Below are positions 13-56,044 of a stretch of DNA of 64,000 nt, in pieces (positions within the stretch are counted from its first letter, which is position 1; each line of letters starts with the position of its first letter). The stretch lies in IMG/VR virus record IMGVR_UViG_3300009788_000007, positions 1 to 64,000 of that record, one strand, 5' to 3'. The stretch comes from a virus. Position numbers and translations under genes: made by a program. The notes beneath the pieces are model-generated. The model searched no databases. It had not been told where the DNA came from and saw only the letters and a list, made by a program, of their open reading frames with translations.

Positions 13-2524
13 TTATCTATTCCTTGTTATCCCTGCGTTCATAAATGATATCGTGGCCTCAAGTACTTTAATATGGTTAAGTAAACCCTTCCTATCCATT
101 GTAGATAAATCTGGCTGCACGTATTGGTACGTGTAATTTCTCTTTTGTTTGTACTCAACTATCAAAACCTCATCAGCCTGGGTGCTTTGCTCTACCCCTT
201 TGGGGTGCTGCAACACTAATTTAAATTTATGCTTAGGTGCAAGTTGGTCAACAGTTCTTTCTGTATTATTAAACGGTCCCCCCACCAGCCTTATGTTAGG
301 CATTATTTATTCTCCTTGTACTTATCAATAACTTTTTCAAATGGCGTCCCTGTTTTGTTTACTGATGCCCAGGACCATCTCCAACCCTGCGATTTAATTA
401 TAATTGCAAATTGTGTTGTGGCCTGTAAACCTATTAAAAAATCATTAGCATCTTTTATAGGTGCTAAAAAATCATTACGCCATGTCAACCCTGGGTTACT
501 ATTATTTTTAGGTGTATGGCTACGCGCTCTTAAATAAAATATATAATTTTTGTACTCCACATCAATAGTGTATTTATCATATCTGGTCACTGTTAATTTA
601 GTTCGCATCGTAAAACCTTTCTTCCTCATGTTTTGCGTACCTTTTAAAAAGTTTAATAAGGCACTCCATAATTGTTAAGCGCTCATGCCTATAAAAATAA
701 AGTGTATCATTCAATACATTTAAACTTTCTAAAAGGTACACATCTTTCTTTATTTTTACTGGTACCATTGGTGTTTTTATAACAGGTTCATAGCTTGATG
801 CTTTTTCACGCTTGGGTAAATTAAGCACAGCAATTTTTAAATTTTGCCATGTACCGTCCCAGGTCCCGCCTATTAGTAAAATCATTTTGTAAAACTTTTT
901 ATAAAAGTTACTATCATCCAAGCAAAAGCCCAGCTGCAGCTGCAATAAAAAATACATTCGTTAAGGCTCATTCGTCTTCCTTTTTTAATTCATGTAGCGA
1001 CCATACTAACATCATTAAACTCATACCAGTAAATAACCCTACTAAAAAATATCCTAATTGTTCACCAGTCATTCTAACCTTCCCATAAAGTTTTATCTTC
1101 ATTGTCTTTTGGCCCACATAATATTTTTACCATATTATAAGCGTGTAACTCTTTAGCAATCATAGCTGACTGCGTTAAATAAGATAAAGTTACTAACCTT
1201 AAATACCATGGTGTTTCTTCCTTAAGTTTATCTTTTACCTTTTTCCAAGATTCAATTTCATGGCAAGCAGTTTTATATTTTTCTATTCTTTCCTCTACGG
1301 ACATCATTAAAGTTTTATCAATAATCCTATCTAGCTTGCTCACTACTCAGCCTCCAATATTTCTAAAAGTTTATTCTGGTAAAAATCATCATGCACCCAT
1401 ACAGTTTTTGAAGTTCTAGAAAGGTCCTTGCATAACTTTTTAGGTATCCACATAAGTAATTTTTTACCGTCTACATCAAGCCTAAATAAATAGCTTTTAT
1501 CTGTCATACTTTTTATACTTACGTATTTAATTTTCATAGTGGTAAATGTTGTGTAGTTCCTACTATCACCTTCACCATCTAACATACGGTCAAAACCATC
1601 GTACATATCTGCCATGTCACCCATTACATAACCTCTTCCGTGTAACACTTACAATCTTCATACAATGGTGGTATTTGGCATTTATCTTTAATTACTATAC
1701 CATCTAAGGTATTGCACAATAAACCCTCTAAACTTTGTCTGCAAGGTTGGCAACATCTAAAAATTAAATTACTCATATCCTAAACTCTTCCGTCTCTGTA
1801 AGCTCATTTAGTATTTCTATAATATCGCACATAGCCTGCCCTTTGTTAACAACAGGGGTTACCTTAAACTGCAATTTCATTTATGCATACTGGTCATGCC
1901 CATTTTCGTCTACTGCGTATTTTTTAACCCAGTCATAGATTAAACTTTTAGCATGGTCTTTACTCATATTTTAAAATACCTCCTGCACATTTATAGCCCC
2001 ATGAAATTCTACTGCATCAATAAGCTTTTTTGCGTCATCGATACCTGCAGCTAATAGTGCCTTAAGTACAGGTAAACTATTTTTAGTAAAAGTCATATCA
2101 ATAACTTCTTCACCGCTTAATTTTCGTAAAGCATTTTTTAACTCGATGCTTAACGGGTTTGGGACATACTGCTGTGCTGGCCACCAAGTAAGGGTACTGC
2201 TCATTAGGGTAACTCCTTTAATTGTTTGTCTATACATTCGTTAATAGCTTCAAAATAATTTTTTAGGGTATCTTTATTAATTTCTATAATTTCTTTTGTT
2301 TTACTTATGTCTACATTCTCACATGCTCCTGGTGTGTGCTCCATAGCTAACTTTAAAGATTCAGCTAATAGGAGTGGTACAAAAGTAAACATTAAATTAT
2401 GCTCATCACAAAGTTTAGCTGCGTGCATAACTAAATCTTTACTTACTTTTTCACATTCATCATACGAGCTATTTTTATTTTCTTCATACTCGTCCATAAT
2501 ATCTTTAAAATTTTTCCTACCCAT
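13..2524 (-). CDS. Run of small hypothetical phage genes (13-303, 303-629, 598-957, 1074-1343, 1343-1648, 1971-2237, 2204-2524)
   Basis: Tightly packed or abutting minus-strand ORFs with natural protein composition; no recognisable motifs. Confidence 0.6.
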
Positions 2525-2891
2525 TATTTACACTCCATTTTTAAAACATCTTTTATATAAAAACTGCCAATCCCTAAACTATCCAACATCGTAGCTATCT
2601 AACTCGTATCTATCATACGTGTGTAGACTACCCTTAAGAATTTTTAATTCTATTAAGGCTTTTTCTTTATCTACATACACACCACATATATCTGAATAGC
2701 CGTAGTCTACTACAGCTGTAATAATCCAAACATTTTTCATGACAGATACTCAACAATTTCTTTTTTAAACTCTTCAGTACCTAAGTGCGCTATCCAAATT
2801 TGAGCCCATAACCAACTTTCATTTCTAGACAATCCATTATTTAAAAAATATATTTGTAACTTTATTTGGCAAGCCATTCCTACTAAGTCCA

Positions 2892-3485
2892 TTATTTACC
2901 ACACCCCATTTCTAAATGTTCACGTATATAGTAGCTGCCGATCCCCACAGCGTCTGCTTCATCTGCACGCTTACTGTCAAGTGTTAATCCCCACAGTCTA
3001 TTCATACGTTTCTGTGTAAGCTCTTTACTTAGCTGGCCCTTCCAAACGCCCACAGGCGCATAGTATACCTGCGATACATCATCCTCAATTAAAAACATCT
3101 CCCTAAGTGCAAAACATAGGCTAGTTAATTTTGTAATATCCCCTGCATTGTTAGCCTGGGCACCGTAAGGTAATTCAATAACTACAGTAGTGTCATCACA
3201 TTGTTGGGTCCACGCACACCACGCTTCATAAACTTTACCAGTCATATAATCAATACGCAGTACCCAATCATTAGCGTCATGTATGCCTTTATTAGCTAAT
3301 ACAGGGTTAGGTAAGCCACTTCTATTCAGCAAATAAAATTTAAAGTCCTTAGTAGTGTCTGCAGCTTTAAATTGCCCACTTTTAAAAAGGCTTACTTTAG
3401 GTTTTTTATCTTTTTGTTTTTTAATTTTAAAAAGTGCCCAGCCTAAACTGCGTAATGATGGATCAATAGCTAAAATATATTTCAT
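2892..3485 (-). CDS. RuvC-like Holliday junction resolvase
   Basis: N-terminal ILAIDPSLRSLGWA, central VVIELP and C-terminal DEADAVGIG match the RuvC catalytic D/E/D-D pattern. Confidence 0.85.
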   Translation of the reverse strand: MKYILAIDPSLRSLGWALFKIKKQKDKKPKVSLFKSGQFKAADTTKDFKFYLLNRSGLPNPVLANKGIHDANDWVLRIDYMTGKVYEAWCAWTQQCDDTTVVIELPYGAQANNAGDITKLTSLCFALREMFLIEDDVSQVYYAPVGVWKGQLSKELTQKRMNRLWGLTLDSKRADEADAVGIGSYYIREHLEMGCGK

Positions 3486-3718
3486 TCTAGGTTTTCCTTT
3501 TTACTAATCTCCTGTAAAACTTTCATAACCATATTACTCGCTAATGCCCCAATTAGCTGAGTATGGTAACCATCGTCATGTGTCATCTTATTCATCCTAT
3601 CAATTAAATCCATAAGCTCACCATAGGGCATTTCTTTAAAAGTCTTTTTTGCCACTTCCCATTCTTGGTCAGTACGCATTTGCATTTTTAAAAGTTCGGT
3701 TTTACTAATATTAGGCAT
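3482..3718 (-). CDS. hypothetical protein
   Basis: ORF overlapping the start of the RuvC-like gene by 4 nt. Confidence 0.6.
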   Translation of the reverse strand: MPNISKTELLKMQMRTDQEWEVAKKTFKEMPYGELMDLIDRMNKMTHDDGYHTQLIGALASNMVMKVLQEISKKENLE

Positions 3719-3908
3719 ATTATTTTTTCTTCTTAGTTGTTTACTTTATGTGGGAGTATGCGCCATTTTTCTGAGCTATGCTTAATAGCTCGTCCTAAAC
3801 CACGTCGATATTTTGAAGCTTCGTTTTGTGAAGGCTCAACACCTGCTTTTCTACAGGCATCTAAAAATGGTTTGTACTCTTTTGAAAATTTAGCAATTGT
3901 CATCTTAC

Positions 3909-4106
3909 TCATTTTTTCTTAGCCTTTTCTTTTTTAAATTTCAAAACATCTGCACGTATTAAATACTTAATATTACAACCAGTTATAACGTAAGTTTTTA
4001 AAGCTTTAGTTGTAATATACCAGTGTACATTGCTGCGTGCCTCCTGCAGTATTTTAGCTGCACCTGTTACAGTTATGTATCCTGGTATTAATTTACTCTT
4101 TGGCAT
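3909..4106 (-). CDS. small HTH DNA-binding protein (excisionase/HTH_17-like)
   Basis: YITVTGAAKIL...SNVHWYITTKAL...YLIRADVLKF pattern typical of MerR/Xis-like winged HTH. Confidence 0.6.
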   Translation of the reverse strand: MPKSKLIPGYITVTGAAKILQEARSNVHWYITTKALKTYVITGCNIKYLIRADVLKFKKEKAKKK

Positions 4107-4555
4107 TGTTGGCCCTTTCTTTTCTAAGTCTAGTCATTTGTTTATTAATGCTTTTTTGTGCTTGCTTACTTTGTACCATATAATTTACTATTTTAAATTC
4201 AGCTTCTTTATAACTAAGGCTATACCCACTAAAAGTAATATTCTTTGCCTTTTTTCTGTTTTCTAAAATTCTCATACTACCTGCCCAATACCCTGCTGCA
4301 TCTATCAGGTGGTCGATTGCCTCACTGTCTGCATAATATATAGTCGCGGCCTGTCTGTGTAAGTGCCAACCTTTACTTTTTTTTTACGCCTTATCTGCCT
4401 GCCACTATCTAAAGTAACAATAACAAATACGTGGTTTTTATGTACATCGGTATGCATAGGTGTGTCACTCTCTTTTAAGCTTCTCTATATTGATAATTGT
4501 ATGTCTAAACAGCCAATCTGTCTAGCCCTTGTTTTTTGCCGTATTACTGGCTTTA

Positions 4556-5508
4556 TTAGCCATAAACTGACTTACCAAACAAGCAGGTCTGTATAAACAC
4601 ATCTGCTGTTTCACCGTCATCATTTTCTGCTAACATATCTGCAAAATGTTTAGGTTCATTTTTTGCGAATTGTTTTAAACCTAGAATTACTCTATCATAA
4701 TTAATTTGGTGATCAGTATATTTATTTGTGTCTTCATCATGTTCAGTAACTGTTGCATCAGTAATTTTAAGCTCTGCCATCGTATAGGGGCCTTCCCAAT
4801 TCCTGCACCAATAACCTATGGCCTGTTCTACACCATTAATAAGTAAGTTATCAATGTCACTTATTTTAATTTCAATTTCTATTTTTACGTTTGCCATTTT
4901 AAGTACCTTTCTTTTTCTTAGTTAGTTTTTTAATTTTATGATAGTTTTTTTTTTATTATTAAAACCATACCTCCCCTGTTTCCCAAGCTTCAATAATTTG
5001 TTTAAAAGATTTTATTAATGTCTTTTCACCTGTGTCGTAATAATCCATAGATAGAATACCTTCAGTACCTAATAAGTATATACGCTCTTGCTGACAATCT
5101 AAATCAGTTACGACGAGATAATCAGGCCCTAAATAGCTAAACTTAGCAAATTTTAATTTATTGCCATTAGGCGCTGTTACTTTTTTTAATGTTTTCATAT
5201 TAATCTGTCTCTTTTTCTGAAAATTTTTCCCATCCATCCACATATTTCATTTGTTCAGGTTTTATACCTGTACAATCTTCAATAATTTTATAGGCTTTTT
5301 TATCGTTCCATTTATAAATAGTGTACGAAAACCAATTGTTCCCATTTTCATCTGGTTTGTTATACATACCAGCACTATTGAGTGTGAATATATAATTTCT
5401 AAAAGTTAAATTAAATAACTCAGTAAGTTCTTTTTTCTTACCAAAAAACTTAAATTTTAATTTCATGTCACTCTCAATTTTTTCAATTCTCATATTCAGC
5501 CCTTTCAA
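4556..5508 (-). CDS. three hypothetical early proteins (4556-4897, 4959-5243, 5200-5508)
   Basis: Directly downstream of the boxed promoter at about 5520-5555; GAAAGG-type RBSs upstream. Confidence 0.65.
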
Positions 5509-51983: not shown

Positions 51984-52222
51984 ATTTAATCCTTGGGCGT
52001 CTCGCCCTGTTGGGTGGCGTCTCGCCACGTTTTAAAATACTGAGGTTTCGCTCAACTGCTTACTAAATAATATATGGTCTCAAAACAGACTTTTCAAACC
52101 CTTAAAATTTGGCGTTTCTGGTCCCTCCCTCCCTATAGGGGGAAATGTGGTTTTTAGAAAAAGTTTTAAATAGTCCTAAATAGTTACAAATATTTTAAAA
52201 TATTTCAAAGTATCTACACAAA

Positions 52223-54310
52223 TTAATCTAATTTTGCTTCAGCTGCACGCATCTGTGGAAGGGTAAGCTGCTTAGTTTTATCATTAAAAAAGAACTTATC
52301 GTTCAGCTTCCCGCGCCGAAATAACGCAGACCTTTCTTTGCCTAAAGCCATTTGCTGGGTAGCCTTTGACTGATTGCGTAACCACTGGGGGTATGTTTGA
52401 GTAGCCGGAACCTGCCCTTTAAAGGTATCGCTTGCTGATGCCCTGGTAGATGGTGGTAATTCATTAAGCCCTGGTATGCCTAAATCCTCAAATGATTTTA
52501 TTACAGGTACCGTGGTACTCCTGCAATTATGCACTAATAACCCATTAGCTAAATAAGTCTCGTCATCCACAACAGCTAGATTGTAAACATACCCGTTGTA
52601 GTACTCATCTACATTTGATATGCTTGATGAGGCAAACCAATTAGAGGGGGAGTTATGGCTACGTTCACTAAAAAAGAACTTGAAAAAATTATTAAAAGAG
52701 AGCACTGGAAATTGGGTAAACCTCTTAGACAAATTGAAAGAGAACTTGGGGTAGGTAAAACTGTTGTGCAAAGTAGTTGCAAACGCTTGGGAATTAAGAC
52801 ACGCACCAGAACCGAGAGTATTAGAAGTGGGCACGCTAATGGCCATCTTAAGGGGGCATCTGGTGCTGACCATTGGAGAAAACAGAATATCAAAAAAAGT
52901 AAAAAGCTTGCTAAACAAAGTTCTGCAAGAATGAAGAAGTCTAACCCAATGTTTGATAAAGGCACTAAAGAAAAAATTCTTAAAACACGTGCTGATAATT
53001 ATAGTAAAAATCCAACAAGACATGAAGCGGCACTTATTAAAATATTTCAACGCAGGGGTATAATATTTTGTTTTCAAAAATCTGTCAGGGGTGGTATTGC
53101 TGATTTTACTTTTGGTAAAGTTATCCTTGAGATTGACGGTAGAGGACATGCCAGCAGAAAAACTGCTGATGCTATACGGGATAAGGTCCTCAATACACTT
53201 GGTTGGCATGTTGTGCGAGTTAGTCAAGACAGCCTGCGTGATTACAGACGACACCCCAACGGCCATTGGCATCTTAGTAAACTTTTCAAAGTTTTGAAAA
53301 AGTACATCACCTGTACAAACATCCCTAGCATTAAGCCATCCTCTGGTTTTGGTAAGTATCGGGTGGTCGTCCGTGAGGCTAACACAGGTATTGAAAGACG
53401 TTTTTAGTTTTTTAATTTTACCGTTATGTGATTTAGCCATAACTGTATAAACTTTTTTCCATCTGTTTAAATGTGTCAATACCTCGTCACCTACCTTAAC
53501 ATCTTCAATAGGTGTTAAACCTTTTTTTGTAGTTATTAGAGTACCCCCCACAAGCGCATTAAAATGTTGGGGAGGCCTGGGGCCTTCACCAATTGGGAAT
53601 ACCTCACCATCAAGAGAAGCGCAGATAGGTGTTGTACGGCTGTCTAGTGTTGCGACATATTTTACTTTATCAATCACATCAGAATTTGCTTCGTAGGTTG
53701 CTTCTCTTGCTTTTACAGTTACCTCGGTCACAGATGTGCGCACTAACGTCTGCGCGTTATGGCGAGTACCATTAAAAACACCATCTGAAAAACCTTGTGC
53801 TTTTGTGCCGACAATCCTACGCGTCATATCCGGGATACTGTCACCCTCTGCTAAACCTATACTAAGCCGTCTTGTAATTTCATTGGCGTCCCGGTCTGCA
53901 TACTGATTAAAATATTTTTTAATAGTTTGCCCTCTTACTTTACCATTTACAATTTGCCGCATCACTGCTTGAGAGGGTACAGTTAGTGCTAATGAAATAG
54001 GGGAATTTTTATTAATAATACGTATTTGATTCTCTGCTTCATTATTTGCAATGTCTAAAAGATCACTCTTAAGGTCAACACCTAAACCCTTGTACCCTTC
54101 ACGCAAAAGTATTGTGTATGCTTTTCGCATTCTGATAAATCTATCCGCTGACATATTTCTGCGCAGTCTGCGGTTTATCTCTTTTTCGACATCAGGCAGC
54201 ACATCATCATTAAGCGTGGCTAAAATTTTATTGACTTCTTTATTACGCAGGCGCTCTAAAAAAATAGCATGCTTTATGGCCTCATCTTGTATGTCGTCAT
54301 TTATTGCCAT
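52223..54310 (-). CDS. head morphogenesis protein (Mu gpF / SPP1 gp7 family) containing an intein
   Basis: TLVRT...YVATLDSRTT.IC..LDG...PPQHFN | intein | CRST; spliced product 351 aa. Confidence 0.9.
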   Translation of the reverse strand: MAINDDIQDEAIKHAIFLERLRNKEVNKILATLNDDVLPDVEKEINRRLRRNMSADRFIRMRKAYTILLREGYKGLGVDLKSDLLDIANNEAENQIRIINKNSPISLALTVPSQAVMRQIVNGKVRGQTIKKYFNQYADRDANEITRRLSIGLAEGDSIPDMTRRIVGTKAQGFSDGVFNGTRHNAQTLVRTSVTEVTVKAREATYEANSDVIDKVKYVATLDSRTTPICASLDGEVFPIGEGPRPPQHFNALVGGTLITTKKGLTPIEDVKVGDEVLTHLNRWKKVYTVMAKSHNGKIKKLKTSFNTCVSLTDDHPILTKTRGWLNARDVCTGDVLFQNFEKFTKMPMAVGVSSVITQAVLTNSHNMPTKCIEDLIPYSISSFSAGMSSTVNLKDNFTKSKISNTTPDRFLKTKYYTPALKYFNKCRFMSCWIFTIIISTCFKNFFFSAFIKHWVRLLHSCRTLFSKLFTFFDILFSPMVSTRCPLKMAISVPTSNTLGSGACLNSQAFATTLHNSFTYPKFSFNLSKRFTQFPVLSFNNFFKFFFSERSHNSPSNWFASSSISNVDEYYNGYVYNLAVVDDETYLANGLLVHNCRSTTVPVIKSFEDLGIPGLNELPPSTRASASDTFKGQVPATQTYPQWLRNQSKATQQMALGKERSALFRRGKLNDKFFFNDKTKQLTLPQMRAAEAKLD
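52526..53557 (-). mobile_element. intein (344 aa; Ala1 ... His-Asn | Cys+1)
   Basis: Block A ALVGGTLITT, PIEDVKVGDEVLT, block B LTDDHPIL, block F VYNLAV...Y.ANG, block G LVHN/C; splits the conserved HFN-CRS motif. Confidence 0.9.
52655..53407 (+). CDS. HTH + Vsr/DUF559-like (EDxHD-type) homing endonuclease encoded antisense inside the intein
   Basis: GAGGGGGA RBS; PLRQIERELGVGKTVV HTH; RMKKSNPM DNA-binding segment; PTRHE...ADF...ILEIDGRGH...RDKVL..LGWHVVRV nuclease core. Confidence 0.85.
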   Translation: MATFTKKELEKIIKREHWKLGKPLRQIERELGVGKTVVQSSCKRLGIKTRTRTESIRSGHANGHLKGASGADHWRKQNIKKSKKLAKQSSARMKKSNPMFDKGTKEKILKTRADNYSKNPTRHEAALIKIFQRRGIIFCFQKSVRGGIADFTFGKVILEIDGRGHASRKTADAIRDKVLNTLGWHVVRVSQDSLRDYRRHPNGHWHLSKLFKVLKKYITCTNIPSIKPSSGFGKYRVVVREANTGIERRF

Positions 54311-54535: not shown

Positions 54536-56044
54536 TCACTCGTCCATTTCAAGTTCGCTATCATCTTGGTTTGTCCCATCATCATCGGGGTCATCATCGT
54601 CCCCTGTAATAAGTCCTAAAGCTGGGCCTTCAGCTAAAATAGCTTCTATCTCATCTTCAATATTTACATTTTCAGATAACACACTTCGGCGTTTCAACTC
54701 AGTTAAAAATGTAGTTTGTGATATTTCTTTAGCAGCTCTCATGTTAAAAAGAATTGTTAAATCTTCTTTATTGCTAAACACCACACCAAAGTCATTAAAA
54801 ATATCAAATGAAAAATCTTTAGGTAATTTTTTATTTAACCACCGCGCAGAAAATTCTGCAGATTTATTTAGGGCTTCTTCTTCTCGCCTAATCCAAGCTT
54901 GTACAGCACTCTCATTGTCATTAGCATCAATGGCCCTACCAGTAGCACTTACAGAAGGGCTTGTAATAACCAAAGGTTCAGTACCTACCACAGTCATTTT
55001 ATTTTCGATATCCATGATATCATCTTGACCTACTTTAATTGAATTTCCTGAATGTTCTACCCATTTCATATCAGCCTCATGGTTCGCTGTAGCAAATTGT
55101 GCACGAGGTCCTATAGTAATACCATTATCTACTTGTTCTTGTGTGACACCTTTAATAAAAAGTACACCTGCACGTGCAACATTAAGTAAGCTGCGTTGGT
55201 CAGAGTATGATTGCCAATGTGTAAGGTTTAACCAAGCTAGTTTTAAAAATGGTGGCTTTGCTGTTAGGTCTCCATCTTGATCTGTGTAGTAAGTAACTAA
55301 AGGTATCTCCCCAAATGTATGTGTGTCACTTTCCTTTAGAACCCAAGTACTAGAGCTATCAGCATTTTTACTTTCTTGCCATAGTTCCCATTTTGTACGT
55401 GTCCATCTTTTAATTTGTTTAACTACTTCGTCCCCAAAATCACCTTCACTAGAAATAAAACTTTGAAAATACCTTATCTCATCTAACTTTGTGTCCTCTC
55501 CCACCTTCCAGAAGAACAAATTTAACGGCGAAATCTCAGACCATACAGGCCTTGCCCCTGCAGATTTTTCTTCTGCTATTGTGGCTGTTCTTGGCACATC
55601 ATTTTTATCAAAAAATTTCATTGTGTTAAAATCTACAAGTACATGTGAAAGGCCCCACTTTAAAGATGTTCTAAAAAGGTCATACCCAAACTGAGTTACA
55701 CTCCTGCCTTTTTTATCCACATCTTTAAAAACAGCTTCTAAAGCAGGGTCTAAACCTTCAGTAGGAGCCCATGTAACCTGTTTTTTAAATGGTTTTGCAG
55801 ACAGCCTATCAATAGTGTTTCCCAAACCTTCAAACAAAAATGATCTATCTAACCTGTTTTCATATGCAGTTTGTGATTCGGCTTCCTGCTTAGGTAGCCA
55901 CTTGGTAGCACCTTTACGCATTGCTTTTGTGCCATCAAGTAAATCTGATATTAAATCCCAAGAGAACTTTTCACGCATGGTATCATAGCGTACTGAAGGT
56001 GTAGATACATCAGCTTTTTTAGGAGTACTTACAGTGTTCACCAT
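54536..56044 (-). CDS. portal protein (DUF4055-like)
   Basis: GT.AMR.....WLP....ES..AY..RL.RS; EIPLV; PP...LA.LN..HWQ..SD; upstream of gpF-like, scaffold and MCP genes. Confidence 0.85.
   Translation of the reverse strand: MVNTVSTPKKADVSTPSVRYDTMREKFSWDLISDLLDGTKAMRKGATKWLPKQEAESQTAYENRLDRSFLFEGLGNTIDRLSAKPFKKQVTWAPTEGLDPALEAVFKDVDKKGRSVTQFGYDLFRTSLKWGLSHVLVDFNTMKFFDKNDVPRTATIAEEKSAGARPVWSEISPLNLFFWKVGEDTKLDEIRYFQSFISSEGDFGDEVVKQIKRWTRTKWELWQESKNADSSSTWVLKESDTHTFGEIPLVTYYTDQDGDLTAKPPFLKLAWLNLTHWQSYSDQRSLLNVARAGVLFIKGVTQEQVDNGITIGPRAQFATANHEADMKWVEHSGNSIKVGQDDIMDIENKMTVVGTEPLVITSPSVSATGRAIDANDNESAVQAWIRREEEALNKSAEFSARWLNKKLPKDFSFDIFNDFGVVFSNKEDLTILFNMRAAKEISQTTFLTELKRRSVLSENVNIEDEIEAILAEGPALGLITGDDDDPDDDGTNQDDSELEMDE

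Follow-up and report, generated by a model that had tools for sequence, protein, structure and literature searches.

The window analyzed here is a stretch of 64,000 nucleotides of viral DNA (positions 1 to 64,000 of the IMG/VR record IMGVR_UViG_3300009788_000007). It belongs to a virus record of 80,600 bp that is complete and has terminal repeats in direct orientation; the record represents an uncultivated AT-rich phage whose capsid protein is ~40% identical to the capsid of MAR10-like Vibrio siphoviruses. The subject of this study is a head morphogenesis gene on the minus strand that is interrupted by an intein, together with a nuclease gene that lies within the intein on the opposite strand. 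A first reading of the sequence (the original prediction) had proposed an intein of 344 amino acids (aa) with splicing blocks at both ends in a gpF/gp7-like gene and, antisense to it, a separate endonuclease gene of 250 aa. The host gene and its intein comprise the following features; the family members mentioned are described below.

52223..54310, minus strand: MuF/SPP1-gp7-like head morphogenesis gene, coordinates including the stop codon; 695-aa precursor, predicted spliced product of 351 aa.
53558..54310, minus strand: N-extein, aa 1-251, last residues ...PPQHFN; junction mapped on the sequence, His at position -3 in 110 of 112 family members.
52526..53557, minus strand: intein, 344 aa, from Ala1 to His-Asn and followed by Cys+1; HINT fold and match to PF14890.
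53285..53557, minus strand: HINT N-lobe, intein residues 1-91, including block B LTDDHPIL; pLDDT (predicted local distance difference test) score 72-86, T62 and H65 invariant.
52643..53284, minus strand: read-through linker, intein residues 92-305 (214 aa), the antisense translation of the nuclease gene; pLDDT <50.
52526..52642, minus strand: HINT C-lobe, intein residues 306-344, blocks F and G, end LLVHN; pLDDT 74-85, H343 and N344 invariant in the family alignment.
52226..52525, minus strand: C-extein, 100 aa, first residues CRSTT; Cys+1 in 112 of 112 family members.
Intein-less allele, sequence on either side of the insertion point: ...CATTTTAAT / TGCAGGAGT...

The 695-aa open reading frame (ORF) matched the Phage_Mu_F family (PF04233) at aa 144-251 (E 8e-11) and the head morphogenesis family phrog_241 (E 6e-91). 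It is flanked by a portal gene (54536-56044) and by scaffold and capsid genes; the PF04233 match and the position beside the portal gene place it in the Phage_Mu_F/SPP1 gp7 family. The MuF profile match breaks off at ...PPQHFN, where 344 residues (ALVGGTLITT...LLVHN) follow before the sequence continues with CRSTT; the insert interrupts the most conserved motif of MuF proteins. The Intein_splicing family (PF14890) matched aa 285-595 with a large gap and at the gathering score (35.8 bits). An AlphaFold2 model of the intein was built on six family sequences, and its low-confidence stretch was left out for superposition. The HINT lobes aligned with the NpuDnaB intein at a VIA-align Z-score of 19.9 (root mean square deviation of 1.6 Å, 130 residues aligned), with gp41-1 at 19.1, and with the KlbA precursor at 14.5. 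Block B T-x-x-H (LTDDHPIL), the terminal His-Asn (...VHN), and the +1 nucleophile (Cys+1) are all present. As judged from the model, the ends of the intein form a complete HINT domain, and the PF04233 and PF14890 matches together with this fold confirm the intein at 52526-53557.

The middle of the intein, which had been described as ~220 aa unlike protein sequence, was modeled with a pLDDT below 50 over residues 92-305. This linker gave no structural match above Z 5, and a word-based protein search with its minus-frame sequence retrieved no protein other than that of the window itself. Explanations by a group I intron or by a frameshifted gene were rejected, since the host frame runs on without interruption and neither HINT lobe is damaged. 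The window gene is also not a fractured gene, as its host frame contains neither a stop nor a restart.

On the plus strand, the following features lie within the intein.

52616..52624, plus strand: possible extended -10 element TGATATGCT, located ~30 nt before the start codon of the nuclease; seen by eye only, weak.
52644..52651, plus strand: Shine-Dalgarno-like sequence GAGGGGGA, 3 nt before the nuclease ATG; read from the sequence.
52655..53407, plus strand: gene for a homing-endonuclease-like protein of 250 aa, coordinates including the stop codon; its codons pair with those of the intein in exact antiparallel register; DUF559 match and fold.
52655..52840, plus strand: helical N-terminal DNA-binding-like region of the helix-turn-helix (HTH) type; helices 6-61 in the model.
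52982..53236, plus strand: Vsr/DUF559 nuclease core, aa 110-194; profile, alignment, and fold.
53285..53407, both strands: true dual-coding overlap between the final ~41 codons of the nuclease and the part of the HINT N-lobe that lies antisense to them and contains block B; read from the sequence.

The 250-aa protein matched DUF559 (PF04480) with 41.1 bits at a cut-off of 20.6. In a search of its sequence profile against the PDB, the DUF559 protein 3hrl was found with E 1.4e-10 and I-Bth0305I (3r3p), a homing endonuclease of the EDxHD type, with E 0.08. The core reads E-x-D-G-x-x-H, as in DUF559. An AlphaFold2 model based on 12 sequences had a mean pLDDT of 83 and consists of a helical N-terminal half and an alpha/beta core. 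The best Foldseek match of this model was 3r3p, the catalytic domain of I-Bth0305I (probability 1.0, TM-score 0.60 on the target), followed by 3hrl, 1cw0, and 1vsr (Vsr), with modest E-values of 0.02-1. The N-terminal region showed weak matches to GntR and RWP-RK and also matched N-terminal modules of phage 'HNH endonuclease' PHROGs. Among the 12 sequences, which are 33-69% identical to the window nuclease (69% for P0001), 19 columns of the core are invariant, including F151, E159, D161-G-R-G-H165, R168, D172, R175-D176, and R188; D150 is present in at least 90%. The domain and structure searches of both frames that had been proposed as a check of the original prediction thus returned a Hint domain on the minus strand and a DUF559/Vsr-type nuclease on the plus strand. 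The ribosome-binding site ascribed to the nuclease gene was also found, as GAGGGGGA at 52644-52651. Codon boundaries of the two frames coincide, as 52655 and 52223 are separated by 432 nt, which is 3 x 144, and the C-terminal sequence YRVVVRE of the nuclease is the reverse complement of the block B sequence LTDDHPI. Both the codon-to-codon pairing and the antisense passage through block B had been foreseen.

A tblastn search with the nuclease identified three Nahant Vibrio phages (38-43% identity), in which the nuclease lies antisense within an annotated ~700-aa 'hint domain protein' beside portal or capsid genes. Used as a single query against viral contigs, the nuclease protein gave no related locus, whereas alignment-based scans did find relatives, namely five more viral contigs and a near-identical pair of metagenome contigs. 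One candidate (L009) proved to be an unrelated chance match. In nine of the ten related loci, a long host ORF covers the entire nuclease gene, always in exact register and always with VHN followed by CRS; in these contiguous loci and in the window, the intein begins with Ala after H-x-N or H-x-R. The search for antisense-nuclease inteins in phage and metagenome data suggested earlier was thereby successful, with relatives at the H-x-N, Cys+1 site. In nine of ten loci, the nuclease ATG is preceded at a distance of 5-10 nt by a purine-rich Shine-Dalgarno-like motif; in L006 the motif is weak. The nuclease ORF was intact in every locus examined, including the one with a fractured host gene. Collapsing of two near-identical pairs reduced the nine contiguous loci and the window to eight distinct sequences.

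In exact antiparallel register, TTA, CTA, and TCA are the only sense codons that read backwards as stops. Because each of them can be replaced by a synonym, no amino acid sequence of the nuclease is incompatible with an open host frame. As background for codon usage, 32 gene proxies of the window were used, in which TTA, CTA, and TCA together account for 6.0% of the codons; elsewhere in the window, TTA and CTA make up 56% of the Leu codons and TCA 27% of the Ser codons. Our recount for the nuclease agreed with the original one: the 16 Leu codons are 11 CTT, 3 TTG, 1 CTC, and 1 CTG, and none of the 18 Ser codons is TCA. The in-register test of stop avoidance that had been called for gave a probability of 6e-9 that no antisense stop occurs by chance, given the amino acid composition of the nuclease, and 1.7e-7 for 250 random codons. 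None of 5740 segments of 250 codons from other genes was free of stops in this register, and the longest run elsewhere was 161. In four further AT-rich loci, the corresponding probabilities for a stop-free host frame, calculated with local codon usage, were 7e-10 to 5e-9.

The strand on which selection acts was analyzed with the eight diverged loci. The codon alignment was derived from the minus-frame proteins, and any bias would therefore favor the minus frame. In the exteins and the HINT lobes, the third position of the minus frame was the most variable one (0.66-0.75). In the linker, the most variable position shifted to the first position of the minus frame, which is the third position of the plus frame (0.63-0.67 versus 0.49-0.57). 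For the nuclease core, the amino acid identity in the plus frame (0.42) exceeded that in the minus frame (0.25), and in the zone overlapping block B substitutions mainly followed the minus frame. These results show that both frames are maintained by selection, with the linker following the nuclease frame and the rest following the host frame.

A comparison of the Vibrio phages 1.266.O (L001) and 1.082.O (L003) revealed that their exteins differ at 156 of 1098 sites (14%), whereas the intein including the nuclease differs at 16 of 1023 sites (1.6%), which is nine times less. Such a contrast is the classical signature of a recent horizontal transfer and suggests recent homing of the element between these two isolated, cultivable phages. 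Within the linker, seven of the nine differences are at position 3 of the plus frame, and the codon changes comprised five that are synonymous in the plus frame and nonsynonymous in the minus frame versus one of the opposite kind.

A profile of the intein including its linker was searched against 1.84 billion cluster representatives and yielded 237 matches at E <=1e-30, the best 150 of which form the basis of all family counts. Of these 150 proteins, 112 match the whole profile in one stretch, that is, they contain a full intein with an open linker; its length is 304-358 aa with a median of 337. The host proteins of the family are ~350-aa MuF proteins, portal-MuF fusions, and larger proteins. 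Two proteins, P0014 (998 aa) and P0024 (1629 aa), carry this intein plus one or two further unrelated inteins in the same polypeptide. In P0095, P0124, P0102, and P0145, the N- and C-terminal parts match the profile and 100-160 linker positions are deleted, a pattern in these sequences that fits endonuclease decay toward mini-inteins.

Decay of the endonuclease is predicted by the homing cycle, and the four proteins with partly deleted linkers, together with the lack of a promoter in a scan of the region, would agree with a plus-strand nuclease that is a silent relic. It would then no longer be expressed or active, the element would be inherited only vertically, and selection would maintain nothing but the open host frame. 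We consider this improbable, because the substitutions in the linker follow the plus frame, 19 core columns have remained invariant, and the nuclease ORF is intact at all loci examined, the fractured one included. The 1.266.O/1.082.O pair argues against it in two ways, by the five-to-one excess of codon changes expected under constraint on the plus frame and by the low divergence of the intein relative to the exteins.

The fractured locus (L007; IMG/VR contig 3300022707_000389, positions 2856-4925) contains two host ORFs in the same frame and register. The first encodes the MuF N-extein, an Ala1 N-intein, and a tail, and the second encodes Met, the C-intein up to VVHN, and then CRS and the C-extein. 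Between the two ORFs there are 11 in-frame stops, and the intact antisense nuclease gene spans the gap. In this nuclease gene, 11 TTA, CTA, or TCA codons occur among the 90 codons between the host ORFs and none among the 160 codons under them (Fisher P 9e-6). Stop avoidance therefore occurs exactly where the host frame is read, and both fractured halves are kept open. To judge from its sequence, L007 probably represents a natural split intein whose endonuclease gene is inverted. Ten proteins among the best 150 end within the intein at profile positions 165-189, like L007. In a FastTree tree of the first 160 intein residues, the fractured forms fell into a clade of eight (support 0.97; pairwise identity 0.42-0.77) and a clade of two (0.905). 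Such a tree indicates that they are long-lived lineages rather than fresh pseudogenes.

The 11 stops tolerated in this viable-looking lineage also bear on the possibility that the minus-frame middle is itself a functional domain, so that the stretch would be functionally dual coding over its whole length. An open frame, a conserved length, and a profile search that aligns the linker across many members could be cited in its favor. Set against these are the low pLDDT over 214 residues without a structural match, a minus-frame identity of only 0.20-0.25, which is below that of the plus frame, a word search that returns the linker alone, and a composition that tracks the GC content of the genome. 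A functional domain in the minus frame is therefore extremely unlikely.

The residue at position 1 of the window intein is Ala (53555-53557) and not the Cys, Ser, or Thr of standard class 1 inteins. The WCT signature of class 3 (Trp at B:12, Cys at F:4, Thr at G:5) is not present either; at these positions, the blocks of the window intein read Ile, Asn (VYNL), and Val (LLVHN), respectively. Of the 112 full-length members, 97 have Ala, 13 have Ser, and 2 have Cys as their first residue, whereas Cys+1 is found in all 112, a terminal Asn in 100%, a terminal His-Asn in 106, and His at -3 in 110. From these sequences, one intein family seems to alternate between standard and Ala1 splicing chemistry, with Cys+1 being universal. 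Splicing of Ala1 inteins by direct attack of Cys+1 is established for KlbA. The class 2 KlbA-type inteins share Ala1, Cys+1, and the terminal His-Asn with the window intein, and the model could be aligned with KlbA at Z 14.5; no sequence kinship between them has been demonstrated beyond the general HINT fold. By analogy, splicing of the window intein would probably proceed by direct Cys+1 attack.

It is conceivable that the Ala1 intein does not splice and that the head protein works with the 344-aa insert or after trimming by a protease. Ala1 is unable to make the first acyl shift, and block F has Asn where many inteins have Asp. We regard a nonsplicing intein as highly improbable in view of the conservation within the family (Cys+1 and the terminal Asn in 100% and the penultimate His in 95% of the 112 members, Thr and His of block B invariant) and of the location of the insert within the most conserved MuF motif. 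The occurrence of Ala1 in 97 and of Ser1 or Cys1 in 15 members of one family fits interchangeable splicing routes, and the KlbA precedent with its structural alignment points in the same direction.

A search with the whole precursor matched many Jerseyvirus and Kagunavirus phages. Escherichia coli phage Snoke has been annotated and published with 'a large intein' in its capsid morphogenesis gene. We found that Snoke (L013, MK931441) carries a Cys1 intein at the same H-x-N, Cys+1 site of its MuF gene and, in exact register within this intein, an unannotated antisense ORF of 269 aa (2212-3021, minus strand), which is not mentioned in the Snoke genome paper. Vibrio phage 1.113.A (L014) likewise has a Cys1 intein at the same site with an antisense ORF of 322 aa in exact register (2230-3198, minus strand). 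The proteins encoded by both ORFs combine an HTH with a Vsr-like core reading EVFGGGW, and the Snoke protein is weakly similar to the window nuclease (BLASTP E 1e-4). With the Snoke ORF as query, tblastn returned 103 phage records, including Jerseyvirus jersey, from phages of Salmonella, Escherichia, Shigella, Klebsiella, Vibrio, Gordonia, Acinetobacter, Aggregatibacter, and other hosts. Among the matches listed for which the overlapping gene has a name, most have the Snoke-type ORF beneath a head-morphogenesis or MuF gene. In Gordonia phage Vivi2 (L015, KU963250), an antisense ORF of ~290 aa in exact register (1594-2466, plus strand of the locus) sits within a 1084-aa MuF-like minor capsid gene; the end of this intein is not His-Asn plus Cys, Ser, or Thr. 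The Vivi2 element is probably one of the anti-sense VSR-like cases of Gosselin et al. (bioRxiv 10.1101/2025.01.02.630785).

In that preprint, Gosselin, Arsenault, and Gogarten report full inteins with anti-sense VSR-like endonucleases from the minor capsid proteins of actinobacteriophages. HHpred matched the endonuclease to 3R3P, the in-frame middle was unstructured, and there was evidence for transfer. The assumption of the original prediction that this architecture had not been described is therefore incorrect. The actinobacteriophage elements and the window element share a full intein in a phage minor-capsid/MuF-type protein, an opposite-strand Vsr-like endonuclease in the slot, a middle without recognizable structure, and signs of transfer. 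The window element differs in that it is not from an actinophage, belongs to a separate Ala1 family, and has the classical DUF559 core E-x-D-G-x-x-H. Such architectures are called rare in the preprint, and its text makes no mention of codon register, codon usage, or stop-codon avoidance. Anti-sense LAGLIDADG inteins in DnaX of Synechocystis and in a SpoVR-like protein of Chloroflexus go back to Gorbalenya (1998), as cited in the same preprint. According to this citation, they also have an endonuclease ORF opposite a contiguous intein, but with a LAGLIDADG fold and in cellular hosts.

Dassa et al. 2009 (PMC2677866) reported fractured genes in which split inteins are separated by a free-standing Vsr-like/EDxHD endonuclease gene; according to these authors, Vsr-like endonucleases were not known in inteins at that time, and a term search of their text gave no mention of an antisense or opposite-strand gene. 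The nuclease superfamily and the internal position in the intein are the same as here, and L007 and the ten protein clusters resembling it are truly fractured, whereas the window has a contiguous intein and a host frame without stop or restart. Canonical bifunctional inteins such as PI-SceI and PI-PfuI share with the window intein the HINT fold, the endonuclease insertion point, and a presumed homing logic. Their endonuclease forms a domain within the intein polypeptide, so that it is produced only when the host gene is expressed, whereas in the window it is a separate gene with its own translation signals. The ShiLan insertion, in which Arsenault et al. 2025 (PMC11855218) recognized a hidden out-of-frame HNH endonuclease, is comparable in that its host frame has no stops and a different frame encodes a homing endonuclease. 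It differs in that this endonuclease is read from a shifted frame of the same strand, splicing domains are absent, and the insert is thought to be retained in the protein. The window element thus belongs to a rare, recently described kind, and its layout itself is not new. What this analysis adds is the scale that the phenomenon reaches in phages other than actinophages, statistics on register and stop avoidance, an Ala1 family, a fractured lineage with an antisense nuclease gene, and nuclease genes that lack an annotation in well-known enteric phages.

Taken together, the element is very probably a composite selfish element, consisting of a contiguous, class-1-like Ala1 intein at the conserved H-x-N, Cys+1 motif encoded by a MuF-like gene and an inverted Vsr/DUF559-type homing-endonuclease gene that occupies the endonuclease slot and uses the same triplets. 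The central proposal of the original prediction, an inverted endonuclease gene in a contiguous intein, is in this way supported by the domain and fold searches on both strands, the substitution patterns, the stop avoidance, and L007 as a control. Since the phage genome, with its terminal repeats, is complete, a functional head gene can be presumed. The ribosome would read the host mRNA through ~214 codons of meaningless antisense sequence, the two HINT lobes would close around this loop as around a normal endonuclease domain, and protein splicing would remove the entire insert and leave the 351-aa head protein. It is known from the engineering of mini-inteins that the endonuclease insertion site tolerates linkers. 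Synthesis of the nuclease would be a separate process, in which a plus-strand transcript is translated from a ribosome-binding site of its own, and the nuclease would cut the intein-less alleles of co-infecting phages, whose repair would copy the element in. It is a reasonable idea that the inverted placement would uncouple nuclease expression from the late head gene.

Four observations weigh against this interpretation. A scan of the region for sigma-70 promoters and terminators gave counts as in shuffled sequence, with no promoter above chance. In three GC-rich relatives, the open host frame carries little information (P 0.03-0.37). The existence of fractured relatives indicates that an open linker is not strictly required for persistence of the family. 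Finally, Ala1 rules out the standard first splicing step, and splicing must therefore use a nonstandard route. The consensus promoter scan also found nothing at the candidate -10 element TGATATGCT. A near-palindrome, TCCCTCCCTATAGGGGGA, is located between the scaffold and MuF genes (window positions 52126-52143), ~500 nt upstream of the nuclease gene on the plus strand, where it was flagged as terminator-like.

A more far-reaching interpretation can be formulated, which we put forward tentatively, as a serious possibility rather than an expectation. Exact antiparallel register might be a principle of general validity, by which any free-standing endonuclease gene could be accommodated backwards in an intein without amino acid cost. 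Contiguous and fractured forms might interconvert, and the fractured clades might be working natural split inteins with the endonuclease gene antisense over the N-intein tail. The backwards placement might give early expression of the nuclease, which is later silenced by convergent transcription of the late head gene. If this interpretation is true, many 'large inteins without recognisable endonuclease', e.g., those of Jerseyvirus and Kagunavirus, hide unannotated nuclease genes.

An arrangement called rare in actinobacteriophages is thus represented by a large, diversified family of at least 112 cluster representatives in marine and enteric phages. The coding rule, i.e., exact register combined with avoidance of TTA, CTA, and TCA, could be used by annotation pipelines to find endonuclease genes hidden in 'large inteins'. 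Since the Vibrio phages 1.266.O and 1.082.O, Salmonella phage Jersey, and E. coli phage Snoke are cultivable carriers in which the layout is unannotated, splicing, antisense expression, and homing are directly testable. For the development of tools, the fractured forms may offer a new supply of natural split inteins. As a general point, selection can act on a single stretch of DNA for the encoded protein on one strand and solely for the absence of stops on the opposite strand.

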